DNA of 55,217 nucleotides from Thermodesulfobacteriota bacterium (GCA_013154175.1 JAADCZ010000064.1:1-55217); one strand, 5' to 3'; shown: positions 46,141-54,936, counted from the first letter of the stretch. Numbers and translations: made by a program. Notes: generated by a model from the letters alone, not told the origin.

Positions 46141-47619
46141 ATGTTTGATACCATTCAAAACCAATTCAAGAGCCGGGTTGGAAACAGCTACTACCTCAAG
46201 TCACTGAGGGTAAAGCTGATTCTCAGTTTTGCCATAGTATTTCTCATGACGGCCTTCTCCTCTATTGCCTCCATTTTTGCCATCTCTCGGGTCGAGCACA
46301 AGATGGAGCTAATGGAGCTAATGGAGGTTATCACCCAGGATACCCTGTTGGTACGACAAAGGGAGAAAAATTTCCTGCTCTATGGAAATCTCCAGGAACT
46401 TGCAGAGGCCAAAAACCTGCTGGCAGAAATAAGAAAACGCATCTCAGCCCTTGATCAGGACTATTTGGAGGGTTTCAGCGAGATCACGAAGCAGATGGAT
46501 GATTATGAGCGAATAATCAACAAGTTCCTTACAGGCCAGGTAAACAGCCGCCAGGACAACGCCCTCAAGGCAGAGCTCAGGGAAGAGGGCCATAAACTCA
46601 TGACAGCCATCATCAATCATGCCAATACCCTCAACAACAGGCTTGAGACCGATGTCCTGAAATATAAAGAGATGTCCTTCCTGCTCTTGTGGGTGGCCAT
46701 TCCTGTGGGCTTGCTTCTGTGTATTTTCCTGGCAGAATGGATCCTCCAACCAATAGACTATTTGAGAAGGCAAGTAATAAACGTCATGAGTGGAAAGCTG
46801 AAACACATACCAGTGGAACCGGTGGCAAACAAGTGCATCGAGTGCGATGGCCTGGTTCGTTCCATTAACAAGATGTTGGACACCATCGAATCGAAACAGC
46901 AGCAGCTTATTCAGTCGGAAAAATTGGCAGCCATAGGTAAGGTCACGGCAGGCATAGCCCATGAAATAAACAATCCCCTTAACAACATAAGCCTTACGGC
47001 CGAAGTCCTCCTGGAGGATATGGAGAACATGACCTGTGATGAGCGAAGGGAATTTATAAATGACATCCTCGTCCAGGCAGAGAGGGCAAGGGATATCGTG
47101 CACCACCTTCTGCAGTTTTCGAGGATGAAAAAATCCACCTTCAGAGAGAAGGTCGACCTTGCCCAGCTGGTGTGCAACACCCTAAGCCTGTTGAAGAATG
47201 AAATAAAAATCACCCGCACCAAGGTGAAGACCAACGTGGAGACTGGAAAGGCCATAGTTTATGGCAATCCAAACCAGTTGCAACAGGTGCTTGTTAATAT
47301 TATCCTAAATGCAGTCCAGGCTATGGGAGAAGGCGGAAGCCTGGACATCGATCTGAAGATCGACGCGGAGAAGAAGAAAGCGCTCCTCACCATCACTGAT
47401 TATGGACCGGGCATTCCGGATGAGGTATTGAAACACATACTGGAACCCTTCTACACTACAAAGAAGGACGGAACCGGTCTTGGCCTTTCTGTCAGTTATG
47501 GAATCATGAAGGAGCACAAAGGAAACTTACGGATTACCAGTGCCAAGGGTCAAAAGACCGAAGTCACCATTGAGTTGCCGCTTCTAGAGTCAAACAAGGG
47601 AGAGGAAGAGGGGAATTGA
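46141..47619 (+). CDS. Membrane sensor histidine kinase (2 TM, HAMP, HisKA, HATPase)
   Basis: AHEINNPL, NAVQAM, D.GPG, GTGLGL. Confidence 0.93.
   Translation: MFDTIQNQFKSRVGNSYYLKSLRVKLILSFAIVFLMTAFSSIASIFAISRVEHKMELMELMEVITQDTLLVRQREKNFLLYGNLQELAEAKNLLAEIRKRISALDQDYLEGFSEITKQMDDYERIINKFLTGQVNSRQDNALKAELREEGHKLMTAIINHANTLNNRLETDVLKYKEMSFLLLWVAIPVGLLLCIFLAEWILQPIDYLRRQVINVMSGKLKHIPVEPVANKCIECDGLVRSINKMLDTIESKQQQLIQSEKLAAIGKVTAGIAHEINNPLNNISLTAEVLLEDMENMTCDERREFINDILVQAERARDIVHHLLQFSRMKKSTFREKVDLAQLVCNTLSLLKNEIKITRTKVKTNVETGKAIVYGNPNQLQQVLVNIILNAVQAMGEGGSLDIDLKIDAEKKKALLTITDYGPGIPDEVLKHILEPFYTTKKDGTGLGLSVSYGIMKEHKGNLRITSAKGQKTEVTIELPLLESNKGEEEGN
46303..46329 (+). repeat. 9-bp tandem repeat x3 (ATGGAGCTA, third copy imperfect) encoding MELMELMEV
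   Basis: atggagcta atggagcta atggaggtt read directly. Confidence 0.7.
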
Positions 47620-49004
47620 AAAACAAGGAAAGGGGCCAAAAGGATTCCTACAAGGTCTTTGTCATAGACGACGAGGAGATTACTGTCAAACGGTTGGTCA
47701 AGGGCTTGGGCTCTGACCCCGAGCTCTCTGTCCAGGGTTTCATCCTGGCAAAGGACGCCATCAAGGCCATGCGCCATTCTCCTCCGGATATCATCATTTC
47801 CGATATCAAGCTGAAGGACGGACACGGCCTCGAGCTCATGGATGAAATCAAGGCCCTGGCCCCCAACGCAATAATCATCTTCATCACCGGTTATGCCTCT
47901 ATCAATCAGGCAGTGGAGGCCACCAAGAAGGGAGCATTCTACTATCTCGCAAAGCCCTTTTCCCTTTCTGAACTCAGACAAACCCTGGCCCAGGCCATAG
48001 AGCACATCAAGTCGAGGCGCCAGCGGGATCTCCTAATGGAGCGAATCAGCAAGGATGGCCGCCTTGGGGAAATTATCGGCACAACTCCCCAAATGCAGGA
48101 GATATTCAAAACCATCAAACAAATTGCCCCCCTTGACTGTAACGTGCTCATCAAGGGTGAAACTGGCACAGGAAAGGAACTGGTCGCCAAGGCCCTTCAC
48201 ATGCACAGCAAAAGGAAGAAATTTCCATTCGTCTCCTTCAACTGTGGGGCATTCACAGAAGAACTCATTGCCAATGAACTCTTTGGCCATGAAAAGGGGG
48301 CATTTACAGGGGCGAACTCCACCAAGCTTGGTCTCCTTGAAACGGCAATGGGTGGAACGGTCTTTCTGGATGAAATAGGCGAAATGCCTCTGTCCATGCA
48401 GGTCAAGCTCCTGAGGGTGCTTCAAGAAAACACCATCTTCAGGGTGGGCGGTACTAAACCTGTGAAGATAGACTGCAGATTCATTGCTGCCACCAACCGA
48501 AACCTCGACAAGATGGTTAGAGAGGGGGTCTTCAGGCAGGATCTCTTTTACAGGCTCAAGGTCGTGACCATAAATCTGCCTCCCCTGAGGGAGCGCAGGG
48601 ATGATATCCCCGCCCTTGCAAGCCATTTTGCCAAAAAGGCTGCCAAAAAATTTGGCAAGCCCATTCCCCAGGTGGGAAAAGACTTCATAGATGGCCTGAT
48701 GGATTACCCCTTTCCAGGGAACTGTCGCGAATTGGAACACATGGTGGAACGGGCAGTTGCCCTCACCCGCTCGAACAGGCTCACCGCAGAAGATCTGCCA
48801 CCAGACCTGTGGCTGCTCAAGGAGCCTGAAAAGAAAAAGGATGCCACATCCCTCAAGAAGCTGGAATTCGAATATATAATGGATGTCTATAGAAAGACCG
48901 GTTTCAATCAGACAGAAACGGCAAAGATCCTGGGCATTTCAAGGACTACACTGTGGCGAAAACTCAGACAGATGAATGTCCAGCCGCAGAAGCATCAGAA
49001 ATGA
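47616..49004 (+). CDS. NtrC-type sigma54 response regulator
   Basis: IDDE/SD receiver; [14 protein letters not shown]; Fis HTH; overlaps kinase stop. Confidence 0.94.
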
Positions 49005-49005
49005 G

Positions 49006-49392
49006 TTAGTCCTTGCCCTGGGCAGCCCTTTGAACCGCTTCCTTTAGCTCTTCCAACCTGAAGGGCTTGACCATGAAATCGAACACGCCACTCTTGAACG
49101 CCTCTTTTGCAGTCTCCGGTTTGGCATAGCCAGTAATGATGATGACTCGTGCATCTGGGTTGAACTGCCTGGCCCTTTTCAACACCTCCATTCCGTCCAT
49201 CTCCTCCATCTTGAAATCGGTAACTACGATATCAAAGGGATTGGACTTCATATATTCAAGGGCCACAAGTGGATTGGTAAAGGTCTCCACCTGATAACCA
49301 AGCTTTGTAAAAACCTGCTTCAGTCTCTTACCAACAATGGGCTCGTCATCTATGATGATTAGCTTCGCGAGGCTTTCACCATTATCCACCAT
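49006..49392 (-). CDS. Stand-alone receiver domain protein
   Basis: IDDE, TDFKM, ITGY, KP. Confidence 0.9.
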   Translation of the reverse strand: MVDNGESLAKLIIIDDEPIVGKRLKQVFTKLGYQVETFTNPLVALEYMKSNPFDIVVTDFKMEEMDGMEVLKRARQFNPDARVIIITGYAKPETAKEAFKSGVFDFMVKPFRLEELKEAVQRAAQGKD

Positions 49393-49675
49393 TTAAAACT
49401 CCACCTTATCACCTTTTGTTACAAACAATTTCAAACAGCTTCCTGCGCGCCTGTTACAGCACATTTAAAGCAGCAATAATTCTATGCAAAACTATTCACA
49501 AAGATTTTATTAAAAAAATACCGTTCCCACAAGTAAAATTGTGGGCGAACAAAAAATTCCCTGCTTACAGGGGATTATGAGCGCCTTCCCAAAAAGCTAT
49601 GCCCTTGGTTGAAAGGCCTTTTTAGGGGCATGATATTACCATGATTGTTAAAAAATGAAACCTTCCTCCCCCTTT

Positions 49676-54145: not shown

Positions 54146-54673
54146 CTAAACCGATGCAATTTCAATGGGATAGAGGCTACAGTCCGCATCTATTTGTTTA
54201 AGAATCTTCTTAAAACATTCGTCTGTCCAAGGCCTTGCCAGAAAAACCGTCATGGCCCCCCAATACCAGCCAGGATGATCCTGGACCCTCCCCATGAGCA
54301 AGGATGACCACCGTTTCTTTTGATGAAAGTCCTTTTCATCAAGGGAACCGGCAATGAGACAGGATATCCTCTGGGACACCAGAAACTCTATGAGGGCATC
54401 GTCGCTTGCATCCTCGATGAGATGATAAGAATTTTCCACCTTCTCCAGGCCACAAAGCCCTGAGACCAGTTGTAAAAAAAACGAAGGTGAAAAATCCTTC
54501 CAGGTGCTCCCCATATCCTGCATCTCTTCCTTGGTCTCAAATTCAGCCGGATCAGGGACAAGCAGGATGGAGCACAGGGTAGCATCCATCCTTTTGGCAA
54601 GCTTGACTGCACAAAAGCTGGCGTAAAGATCGGAATTTCTACCATCTGCCAGTAAGGCTACCCGTTTTCTCAT
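54146..54673 (-). CDS. Hypothetical protein with USP-like N-terminus
   Basis: 'RVALLADG..A..AVKLAKRMDATL'; AGAGG before ATG 54673; downstream of sigma54 promoter. Confidence 0.6.
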   Translation of the reverse strand: MRKRVALLADGRNSDLYASFCAVKLAKRMDATLCSILLVPDPAEFETKEEMQDMGSTWKDFSPSFFLQLVSGLCGLEKVENSYHLIEDASDDALIEFLVSQRISCLIAGSLDEKDFHQKKRWSSLLMGRVQDHPGWYWGAMTVFLARPWTDECFKKILKQIDADCSLYPIEIASV

Positions 54674-54753
54674 CCTCTTTGCTACACGGTTGACTGCATA
54701 AGTCTGTCTTTTTTCACATAGTTTGCCCTGATCCAAAATCAACCGAATATCAA

Positions 54754-54769
54754 TGCAGCAAAGATGCCA
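54754..54769 (-). promoter_or_regulatory. sigma54 (-24/-12) promoter of USP-TauE-TIGR02186 operon
   Basis: TGGCATCTTTGCTGCA (GG-N10-GC). Confidence 0.72.
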
Positions 54770-54853
54770 GCATGGCAACTATTTGTTTTTACAAAAGAAA
54801 AAGGAAAGAAGGGAGCTTTAGAGATATTTCATGTGCAAAAATTAACTTAAAAT

Positions 54854-54936
54854 TGTTCCAAAAAGAAACAGTAAGCAGACAACTAGTTGATTTTACTAGC
54901 CTTTCCCCCTTGTAACAACTGTTACTTAAGTAAACA
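54854..54936. promoter_or_regulatory. Two TGTT-N9-AACA boxes flanking a consensus IHF site
   Basis: Boxes at 54854-54870 and 54920-54936; AATCAACTAGTTG (WATCAAN4TTR) on minus strand at 54880-54892. Confidence 0.55.

Follow-up and report, generated by a model that had tools for sequence, protein, structure and literature searches.

A cassette of seven genes was read at positions 46141-54673 of the window, the whole stretch of 55,217 nucleotides that was analysed, by ORF calling and Pfam/NCBIfam profile searches. These genes, and with a motif search also the -24/-12 promoter and two enhancer palindromes named in the initial annotation, were recovered at the places given for them. The features, with positions in the window and strand, are as follows.

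46141..47619, plus strand: sensor histidine kinase (HK), 492 aa; Pfam HisKA and HATPase_c
47616..49004, plus strand: NtrC-type sigma-54 response regulator (EBP), 462 aa; Pfam REC, Sigma54_activat and HTH_8
49006..49392, minus strand: single-domain receiver consisting of REC only, 128 aa; Pfam, 104.7 bits
49676..52270, minus strand: predicted dikinase-like phospho-His enzyme (DIK), 864 aa
49679-50563, minus strand: DIK C-terminal domain, undescribed, residues 570-864
50594-50800, minus strand: DIK swivel (PEP-utilizers mobile) domain, residues 491-559; PF00391, 56 bits
50696-50698, minus strand: DIK H525, within the swivel domain
50909-51868, minus strand: DIK ATP-grasp PPDK_N domain, residues 135-454; PF01326, 261 bits
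51911-52270, minus strand: DIK N-terminal helical domain, residues 1-120
52292..52326, minus strand: terminator-like hairpin, 15-bp stem with 8 G-C pairs and a T-run, in the 91 nt TIGR02186-DIK gap
52362..53141, minus strand: TIGR02186/Alph_Pro_TM protein, 259 aa; Pfam PF09608
53144..54100, minus strand: TauE/TSUP-family permease, 318 aa; Pfam PF01925, 177.7 bits, residues 18-300
54146..54673, minus strand: USP-like protein, small and cytoplasmic, 175 aa; called from orthologues and ESM-Atlas clusters
54754..54769, minus strand: sigma-54 -24/-12 promoter, TGGCATCTTTGCTGCA, GG and GC at correct spacing
54854..54870, minus strand: putative proximal upstream activator site, TGTTTCTTTTTGGAACA, 1 mismatch to TGTTTC-N5-GAAACA
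54920..54936, minus strand: putative distal upstream activator site, TGTTTACTTAAGTAACA, 2 mismatches to TGTTTC-N5-GAAACA
54947..54978, minus strand: intrinsic-terminator-like hairpin of 14 pairs and a T-run, which closes the gene before the cassette and delimits the cassette on its upstream side

The cassette is a real, conserved unit whose genes are held together in many sulfur-cycling bacteria, and the counts of gene neighbours, promoters and palindromes are far above chance. The expectation that the genes would co-occur across genomes was borne out both in 79 public loci anchored on DIK (denominators vary by gene) and with the anchor reversed in 201 genomes from the phylum. TIGR02186 lies immediately 5′ of DIK in 62 of 70 loci. 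TauE is also on the 5′ side, in 62 of 68 loci, and the immediate 3′ neighbour is a lone receiver in 67 of 73. An HK orthologue is found within 2.5 kb of DIK (51/65 loci), an EBP orthologue within 6.5 kb (34/42) and a USP-like orthologue 5′ of TauE (47/64). In the reverse search a match to the DIK C-domain lies within 5 kb of at least 33 of 43 PF09608 matches, 27 of these being on the same strand and about 2.4 kb downstream. The half containing DIK and the half containing TauE and TIGR02186 adjoin in 62 of 70 loci, from several orders, and in two Nitrospirota loci, and the named carriers are nearly all sulfur disproportionators or oxidisers. There are exceptions: two loci of cable bacteria (L041 and L043) retain DIK-REC without an adjacent TauE/TIGR02186, a third (L044) has the pair about 8 kb from DIK-REC, and L106, L107, L109 and L110 have TauE/TIGR02186 pairs with no DIK nearby. 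Since each half thus occurs without the other, the two can function apart.

TauE is unusually conserved (72-92 % identity across orders) and has a central loop rich in Lys and Ala and a C-terminus ending AGGH-COOH, of which the GGH is present in 66 of 66 loci. The adjacent TIGR02186 protein scores 184 bits against PF09608 (cut-off 24.5) but only 95 against NCBIfam TIGR02186 (cut-off 255), and therefore represents a diverged, non-alphaproteobacterial branch. It consists of an N-terminal signal or anchor helix, a periplasmic part with an Ig-like beta-sandwich and a C-terminal transmembrane helix, followed by a tail of Lys and GGGGH-COOH; its AF2 model (pLDDT 89.4) gives generic Ig-like fold matches only. 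The Gly-Gly-His C-termini of both proteins are newly described here. TIGR02186 and TauE adjoin in the window and wherever TIGR02186 was detected among the 79 loci; both the Pfam family and the permease neighbour are those of the TIGR02186/Alph_Pro_TM family at large, although in this phylum the cassette branch is usually joined to DIK-REC. The annotation 'transmembrane protein co-occurring with sulfite exporter TauE/SafE' is quoted in PMC13490349.

The first gene of the minus-strand run probably starts at ATG 54673 and not at TTG 54778, which overlaps the promoter. Its description as USP-like is the weakest gene call in the cassette: in the ESM-Atlas its closest clusters are those of Usp (score 0.96, 22 of 30 matches), but the protein itself has no Pfam or NCBIfam match even at E ≤10, and one orthologue (L027) reaches only 18 bits against Usp (PF00582; E=0.0044), under the cut-off of 24.

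The regulatory genes were recognized as a cognate-looking pair. The HK has two predicted transmembrane segments around a helical periplasmic part (approximately residues 50-175), then a HAMP-like stretch, HisKA and HATPase_c, with weak profile matches to 4HB_MCP, CHASE3 and HAMP (E 0.03-0.3). The EBP translation contains GAFTGA in the AAA+ domain and a Fis-type HTH, and its top NCBIfam match is ntrC/AtoC with a score under the equivalog cut-offs. A sigma-54 promoter was defined by GG and GC elements separated by 10 bases in a TGGCAC-N5-TTGCW-like sequence that is kept in orthologous loci. The cassette promoter sits about 80 nt 5′ of the USP-like start codon, and 52 of 58 loci have an equivalent motif upstream; only 3 of 58 have one on the reverse complement, and the gaps within the cassette gave 0/64, 1/70, 1/46 and 0/46. 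The proximal and distal sites lie 101 and 167 nt 5′ of the -24 element, 66 bp from each other; this two-site layout, with its spacing of about 66 bp, recurs across loci, and 42 of 47 loci contain the TGTTTC-N5-GAAACA palindrome, for which shuffling gave a mean of 0.53. The sigma-54 promoter with enhancer boxes that had been proposed is thus well founded.

The order of domains in the kinase and activator is shared with NtrBC, AtoSC and ZraSR, and GAFTGA, a -24/-12 promoter and two palindromic sites about 100-170 bp upstream are features of NtrB/NtrC-type systems as they are of the cassette. The cassette differs from these systems, however, in missing all NCBIfam equivalog cut-offs, in its sensor domain and in the genes that it would regulate, which include a second, lone receiver. 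In this receiver the DD pair, D59, T87 and K109 are invariant columns of an alignment of 34 orthologues (alignment A3).

The initial annotation treated the minus-strand run as a unit, and conserved synteny agrees with this, but a conserved hairpin separates TIGR02186 from DIK and the run is therefore not a simple uniform operon. With a threshold of -10 kcal/mol or lower and a T-rich tail, a hairpin was counted in 44 of 62 TIGR02186-DIK gaps, compared with 9 of 62 shuffled gaps; the other cassette gaps gave 1/46, 7/70 and 13/46. This conserved element is newly described here; it is probably an attenuator, or serves in processing or stability, and would fix how much membrane protein is made relative to DIK.

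DIK carries the name PEP synthase in databases, and PEP synthase is also its top NCBIfam match. Two of its domains, ATP-grasp PPDK_N and the mobile domain with the phospho-His, are shared with PpsA and PPDK. Its alignment with the PpsA encoded in this genome is confined to residues 120-569 (33 % identity), with H525 opposite the phospho-His position; all 16 orthologues have this histidine, as do all 18 paralogues examined. The description 'PEP-synthase-like' obscures the fact that the PEP/pyruvate TIM-barrel is missing; there is also an additional N-terminal helical domain of 120 residues. Neither residues 1-120 nor 570-864 have a Pfam or NCBIfam match, and the latter do not match PF02896 (PEP-utilizers_C) even at E ≤10, whereas the complete PpsA encoded elsewhere in the genome has this domain at 216 bits. 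The scores of DIK are 321 bits against NF005057 (cut-off 598; profile positions 6-467 of 798) and 314 against TIGR01418 (cut-off 740; first ~465 profile positions alone). With the pyruvate barrel swapped for a 295-residue domain and scores so far under the cut-offs, the assignment as PEP synthase was rejected: at the level of domain content it is refuted, and an ordinary gluconeogenic role is hardly credible. The database name is a mislabel, and the small receiver is the partner of this enzyme.

The 295-residue C-domain has no match among PDB sequences at E ≤10, and its model has no Foldseek match at E ≤0.001 and no TIM-barrel or other clear match, the top structural Z being 6.0. It is nevertheless highly conserved, with a mean column identity of 64 % and with Arg, His, Asp and Asn residues that are invariant at many positions. 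The substrates that other swivel-His enzymes phosphorylate are pyruvate, rifampicin, phenol or glucan, and to our knowledge the third domain carries the phosphate acceptor in all characterized members of the group. DIK might accordingly be a small-molecule dikinase whose C-domain binds the imported anion or its product for phosphorylation by phospho-H525, such that thiosulfate, sulfite or sulfide is trapped or activated in the cytoplasm and the receiver merely tunes the enzyme. The ATP-grasp domain and histidine are intact, the domain at the acceptor position is replaced and not lost, and its invariant residues would suit an anion site. We regard this as unlikely, however, in view of the paralogues, of which there are up to 11 in one genome, mostly beside receivers and kinases, a pattern more like signalling than metabolism; nor does any fold or sequence relative of the C-domain indicate a ligand. 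Among 20 paralogous regions in the phylum, lone receivers are present in 11, kinases in 13 and other TauE-family genes in 6. There is also a split form, in which the N- and C-domains, lacking the kinase and His domains, still adjoin a receiver, and kinase chemistry is not needed in all cases.

Two published systems bear directly on how far the cassette may be called undescribed. In the proteomic results for Dissulfuribacter thermophilus given in PMC13490349, three adjacent genes are up in thiosulfate disproportionation relative to growth with H2 plus sulfite, with log2 rises of 3.40 for a PEP synthase, 1.79 for the TauE-co-occurring transmembrane protein and 1.56 for TauE; we equate these with cassette genes by gene order and annotation alone. 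The dikinase is handled there as PEP synthase and, in the portion of the study concerned, the unit is not recognized. The second is the 'nitrate cluster' of Desulfovibrio (DVU0251-DVU0245/Dde_0597-0605; Korte et al., 2014, PMC4001038), a similarly composed cluster with published genetics. From the account of its genes there, it likewise includes a TauE-family permease, a small conserved protein, a histidine kinase and a lone receiver, and its enzyme, like DIK, is annotated with PPDK_N, ATP-grasp and mobile-domain signatures only. By annotation, however, it lacks TIGR02186 and contains in addition a PtxB-like periplasmic protein and a Tyr/dual-specificity phosphatase, domains of which none was found in the seven cassette proteins with Pfam or NCBIfam; a sigma-54 promoter, present in the cassette, is not reported in the sections of PMC4001038 on the cluster. 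The survey of paralogues suggests that the nitrate cluster is a sister module and not the same one. What may still be called undescribed is the mechanism.

In the nitrate cluster, transposon insertions in the gene for TauE, in that for the receiver and in that for the PPDK_N/mobile-domain enzyme all confer nitrate resistance, and a leaky thiosulfate transporter was proposed by the authors (PMC4001038). In D. vulgaris the cluster HK is listed as a pseudogene, and the receiver and dikinase mutants keep their phenotype (PMC4001038, Table 3). The latter observation would fit DIK itself being the phosphodonor of the receiver, which is also its most constant neighbour (67 of 73 loci, and 11 of 20 paralogous regions). 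This possibility seems rather doubtful, since a canonical HK, a simpler donor, is conserved near REC, and the split form keeps its receiver with no His domain to donate from.

The shared phenotype is also relevant to whether the cassette could be a general stress or ion-homeostasis module independent of sulfur, for example for export of a toxic anion, with USP-type proteins as the main link and DIK and REC as separate neighbouring signalling genes. Bona fide Usp genes lie directly 3′ of TIGR02186 in the DIK-less pairs of L106, L107, L110 and L112, the hairpin divides the two halves, and TSUP substrates are diverse, with few of them identified according to Marietou (2018; PMC5840216). Such a module is nonetheless improbable given the adjoining of the halves over several orders, the sulfur metabolism of the named carriers and the single phenotype of the Desulfovibrio TauE, receiver and dikinase mutants.

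We tentatively favour, with a confidence somewhat short of even, a sulfur-oxyanion permease that is gated or served by a phospho-switch of DIK and the receiver and is under two-component, sigma-54 control. The HK would sense an external signal and phosphorylate the EBP, which would then bind the palindromes and open the sigma-54 promoter. TauE and TIGR02186 would form one two-subunit permease, through which a thiosulfate- or sulfite-type oxyanion would cross the inner membrane; DIK would autophosphorylate H525 with ATP bound on its ATP-grasp domain and, with the receiver, would turn on the permease or the downstream handling of its cargo. Either the receiver, phosphorylated by the kinase, might act on the module of DIK N- and C-terminal domains, or phospho-DIK might hand its phosphate to a target held by the new C-terminal domain. 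The interpretation in the initial annotation is in these respects partly supported; a sulfur oxyanion, one of the anions it suggested, stands as a lead because of the Dissulfuribacter proteomics under thiosulfate and the thiosulfate-transporter hypothesis for Desulfovibrio.

A further parallel, which we offer as a lead only, is the sigma-54 operon DVU2957-DVU2964 of D. vulgaris, assigned to 'transmembrane transport' with DVU2956 as activator (Kazakov, 2015, PMC4641369; Marietou, 2018, PMC5840216). It too includes a TSUP permease of an unusually conserved clade (DVU2958, 'clade B'), and activator binding upstream of the operon is reported there from gel shifts. Unlike the cassette EBP, which has REC, DVU2956 acts as a single component and lacks a receiver domain.

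We also note that the window contains a YedE-TusA cluster; such clusters have been proposed as a marker of disproportionation.

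The cassette consists of seven genes across positions 46141-54673 of the window, and five of these, on the minus strand, converge on a plus-strand pair encoding a sensor kinase and an activator.

Genes of the cassette and the hairpin within it
Plus strand: membrane histidine kinase with HisKA and HATPase_c domains, its gene overlapping that of the activator by 4 bases
Plus strand: NtrC-type activator with a receiver domain, a sigma-54 AAA+ domain carrying GAFTGA, and a Fis helix-turn-helix
49006-49392, minus strand: lone receiver
49676-52270, minus strand: DIK, a dikinase-like protein of 864 residues
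52326-52292, in the gap between the TIGR02186 and DIK genes: hairpin with a 15-bp stem and a T-run
52362-53141, minus strand: TIGR02186/Alph_Pro_TM protein
53144-54100, minus strand: TauE/TSUP permease
54146-54673, minus strand: USP-like small protein

None of the seven proteins was assigned to a named NCBIfam equivalog. The evidence for the USP-like assignment is weak: the protein of the window has no Pfam match at E≤10, an orthologue has a Usp match below threshold, and by language-model features the nearest clusters are Usp. The likelier start codon of this gene is the ATG at 54673 rather than a TTG, the longer TTG-initiated frame reported by the ORF finder running into the promoter.

Sixteen aligned DIK homologues were used to collect 282 relatives, the best 80 of which were kept, and 79 public loci were fetched; the seven proteins of the window were then mapped onto these loci, with each count restricted to those having enough flanking DNA. 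The co-occurrence expected of a self-contained sense-transport-phosphorylate system, as the initial annotation had proposed, is borne out. TIGR02186 lies immediately upstream of DIK in 62 of 70 loci, TauE is upstream in 62 of 68, and the receiver is immediately downstream in 67 of 73; a kinase is found within 2.5 kb of DIK in 51/65 loci and an activator within 6.5 kb in 34/42, and a USP-like gene is detectable nearby in 47/64. In loci of the Desulfobulbales type all genes are on a single strand in the order activator, USP-like, TauE, TIGR02186, DIK, receiver and kinase, followed by two DIK paralogues; three cable-bacteria loci retain the DIK-receiver pair with the permease pair not adjoining, and in two Nitrospirota loci the receiver precedes DIK. 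The tandem paralogues (851 and 887 aa; positions 14601-19791 of locus L027 and the equivalent Desulfobulbales positions) fall in well-supported clades of their own, and the genome of the window, which encodes a single DIK, is without them.

A search from the side of the membrane protein points the same way, as PF09608 has 43 matches in 41 of 201 genomes sampled across the phylum and at least 33 of the 43 have a match to the DIK C-terminal domain (C-domain) within 5 kb, 27 of these being on the same strand and about 2.4 kb downstream. When 87 C-domains were placed in a quick maximum-likelihood tree, with 29 of the 79 cassette loci taken as representatives, the TIGR02186-adjacent DIKs formed one group of 31 rows (SH-aLRT 94) that is the sister of a 'DIK2' clade and stands apart from 'DIK3' and the remaining paralogues.

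The sigma-54 promoter that had been claimed at the head of the minus-strand run also stands. In the sequence TGGCATCTTTGCTGCA, at 54769-54754 on the minus strand, the GG and GC elements are spaced as in sigma-54 promoters. When the 1 kb upstream of TauE was scored for matches to at least 9 of 11 consensus positions, with GG and GC held fixed, a site was present in 52 of 58 related loci versus 3 of 58 on the reverse complement. Nearly every site lies immediately 5′ of the USP-like gene. Applied to the internal gaps, the scored motif gave 0/64, 1/70, 1/46 and 0/46; a strict regular expression matched 19 of 59 loci. The enhancer boxes described with the promoter are likewise real, and correspond in the window to copies of a 17-bp palindrome, TGTTTC-N5-GAAACA, at 54936-54920 and 54870-54854. 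With up to two mismatches it occurs 5′ of the promoter in 42 of 47 loci (shuffled mean 0.53, maximum 3), with up to one mismatch in 32 and without mismatch in 14, the usual layout being two copies about 66 bp apart. Co-conservation suggests that these palindromes are bound by the neighbouring activator. These comparisons, all made at the sequence level, confirm the cassette as real and conserved, and as predicted to be under sigma-54 control. Its regulatory logic is ordinary, and TSUP operons in Desulfovibrio vulgaris are described as commonly sigma-54 controlled, for example DVU2957-2964 under DVU2956 (PMC4641369).

A hairpin equivalent to that at 52326-52292 is present in the TIGR02186-DIK gap of 44 of 62 loci, against 9 of 62 shuffled gaps, and in the other gaps of the cassette hairpins were scored in 1/46, 7/70 and 13/46 cases. 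No sigma-54 motif was found downstream of it. It probably acts as an attenuator or a stabilizer that sets the ratio of the membrane proteins to DIK and the receiver.

Studies of the genomes and proteomes of these organisms routinely label DIK a 'PEP synthase', which it is not. PEP synthase models are matched by DIK over no more than the first ~465 positions of the models, far under their cut-off, and the genome has its own complete PpsA, with PPDK_N, mobile and PEP-utilizers_C domains. Alignment of DIK with this PpsA is confined to residues 120-569 (33 % identity), where H525 of DIK aligns with the histidine of the PpsA mobile-domain motif; the earlier 'PEP-synthase-like' label conceals the lack of a PEP/pyruvate domain in residues 570-864, which lie outside the alignment. 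The latter form a separate domain with a mean column identity of 64 % and many invariant Arg, His, Asp and Asn residues among 44 sequences. Neither Pfam nor a sequence search of the PDB gave a match to this C-domain at E≤10. Its AlphaFold model is of moderate confidence (mean pLDDT 74), with residues ~80-295 good, and fold searches with it returned weak and scattered rows only: Foldseek gave nothing at E≤0.001, and the top structural Z was 6.0 (125 residues at rmsd 3.5), no chain reaching Z 8. The ESM Atlas gave no usable match. As a family, the domain comprises 1457 clusters of 50 % identity at E≤0.001, of which 725 remain at E≤1e-30, in a collection of 1.84 billion representatives; fragments excepted, it is at the C-terminus of proteins of about 850 residues. 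It occurs in 79 of the 201 phylum genomes, with a maximum of 11 copies in one genome. The swivel histidine is kept in the alignment of all 18 DIK paralogues examined, these being limited to paralogues of at least 740 aa whose C-domain matches G[YF]H[FLM]; a strict regular expression for the histidine found it in 3 of 16.

The 20 regions surveyed around DIKs unlinked to TIGR02186 include a lone receiver adjoining or near the paralogue in 11, a kinase in 13 and, in six, a further TauE-family gene about 32 % identical to TauE of the window. The combination of enzyme, receiver, kinase and TSUP permease is, by these counts, a recurring theme and not an accident of one locus. A split form of the enzyme is seen at 7293-8564 of locus L111, where a protein of 423 residues (G083) has the DIK N-terminal helical domain fused straight to the C-domain, without ATP-grasp or His domain, and adjoins a lone receiver and a TauE/TIGR02186 pair. 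On this arrangement, the N- and C-domains of DIK look like a single functional unit that has taken up the kinase parts as an insertion. Two other arrangements were noted among the paralogue regions. At L087:9385-12081 and L102:9047-11830, the place where a receiver/kinase pair otherwise stands, directly beside a DIK paralogue, is taken by a sigma-54 AAA+ protein of about 900 residues; both proteins lack a receiver domain and have an N-terminal part that weakly resembles dCache. DUF4881 proteins of ~200 aa (L091:1875-2468 and L098:1776-2381) adjoin TauE paralogues, and their clusters also contain kinases, receivers and a DIK paralogue; in size they come near DVU0250, a 'conserved hypothetical' protein of the Desulfovibrio nitrate cluster.

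TauE is unusually well conserved, being 72-92 % identical across orders where DIK is ~50 % and TIGR02186 ~40 % identical. The TIGR02186 model (pLDDT 89.4) has a leader or anchor helix, a periplasmic part that is an Ig-like beta-sandwich, and a C-terminal transmembrane helix. Fold searches gave generic Ig-like sandwiches only, many of them tied at the top Z of 9.2, and a likeness to SoxZ at Z 8.2, below that shared score, was not taken as meaningful. Both membrane proteins of the window finish in Gly-Gly-His-COOH (53144-53155 and 52362-52376). Among loci with readable ends (L002-L080), TauE ends in GGH in 66 of 66 and TIGR02186 has a final His in 66 of 66, as GSH (33), GAH (17), GGH (13) or another form (3). 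Since the tails are kept in pairs that have no nearby DIK (L106, L107, L109 and L110) and are missing from all six TauE paralogues that neighbour other DIKs, they belong to the TauE/TIGR02186 pair and not to DIK. They may serve the two proteins as a common site for a metal or ligand, or may be a tag for recognition.

The named carriers of the cassette are mostly sulfur disproportionators or oxidizers (Thermosulfuriphilus, Dissulfurimicrobium, Dissulfuribacterales, Thermodesulfatator, Desulfurivibrionaceae, Desulfocapsaceae and Electronema); the full cassette is also present in a Dissulfuribacterales MAG (L018). [quoted passage not shown] Its authors place the first under gluconeogenesis and the other two as possible sulfite or sulfate export (PMC13490349); as DIK is not a PEP synthase, inferences on carbon metabolism such as this gluconeogenesis reading change. 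For the Desulfovibrio 'nitrate cluster', which resembles the cassette in annotated gene composition, a leaky thiosulfate transporter has been proposed and a mild thiosulfate defect mentioned as unpublished (PMC4001038). TSUP 'clade B', described as unusually conserved, has been suggested as a candidate for sulfate transport (PMC5840216); the best 120 TauE matches, all at least 73 % identical, include none from the named clade-B organisms. In the Desulfolithobacter dissulfuricans GF1 proteome, a 'universal stress protein' (GF1_10800) and a 'response regulator' (GF1_10760) are thiosulfate-specific (PMC9751629). Their locus-tag spacing made them candidate cassette members, which we reject, GF1_10780 being an SLC13 permease; TauE, TIGR02186 and the text 'sulfite exporter' are absent from two supplement files of that paper. 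The window also carries, at 11158-13567 on the minus strand, a YTD-like sulfur cluster with YedE/Sulf_transp (12221-13567), TusA (11912-12169) and two small ORFs without Pfam match (11514-11846 and 11158-11496); YedE-TusA-type clusters have been put forward as candidate markers of sulfur disproportionation (PMC12998232).

The best-supported reading, to which we give slightly less than an even chance, is that the cassette encodes a permease for sulfur oxyanions that is under regulation, with a phospho-switch made of DIK and the receiver coupled to its activity or to downstream handling. The switch could be built in two ways, in that DIK may hand its phosphate to a small-molecule acceptor or may phosphorylate the receiver. 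Were DIK and the receiver a phosphotransfer couple, they would provide a new input route into two-component signalling. A much bolder proposal, which we consider improbable, is that DIK proteins make up a novel signalling-enzyme class. They would be AMP-forming phosphodonors of the ATP-grasp/swivel-His type, and their previously undescribed N/C-terminal module would dock a dedicated receiver or the permease; sulfur-cycle bacteria would then have, besides HisKA, another route of His-to-Asp (or His-to-target) transfer by which TSUP anion permeases are gated, with the Gly-Gly-His C-termini of TauE and TIGR02186 in a regulated ligand or metal site. In the literature searched we found no description of the enzyme family, of how it is linked with receivers and TSUP permeases or of the Gly-Gly-His tails, no paper describing the cassette as one unit, and none on TIGR02186/Alph_Pro_TM/PF09608. 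Sulfate reducers and sulfur disproportionators are rich in TSUP/TauE permeases, and how sulfur oxyanions are transported is a recognized gap in models of both sulfate reduction and disproportionation (PMC5840216, PMC13490349). The cassette makes this gap genetically accessible through a regulated gene set that is well defined and conserved in many genomes: a sensor, an activator whose binding site is predicted, a permease in two parts, and the enzyme with its receiver.

Three further features of the window are worth recording. A minus-strand run at 31174-39782 encodes flagellar basal-body and export proteins (FliE, FliF, FliG, FliH, a FliI-type ATPase, FliJ and rod proteins) and is preceded by a sigma-54 activator without receiver domain match. 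At 19198-20385 on the plus strand, a protein of 395 residues combines a cytidylate kinase domain with a winged-helix domain of the MarR type. Finally, the minus strand at 42088-45162 encodes a protein of 1024 residues, roughly double the length of NCBIfam models for GH57 branching enzymes, in which an N-terminal part with DUF4912 is joined to a GH57 branching-enzyme-like C-terminal half (Glyco_hydro_57 and BE_C).
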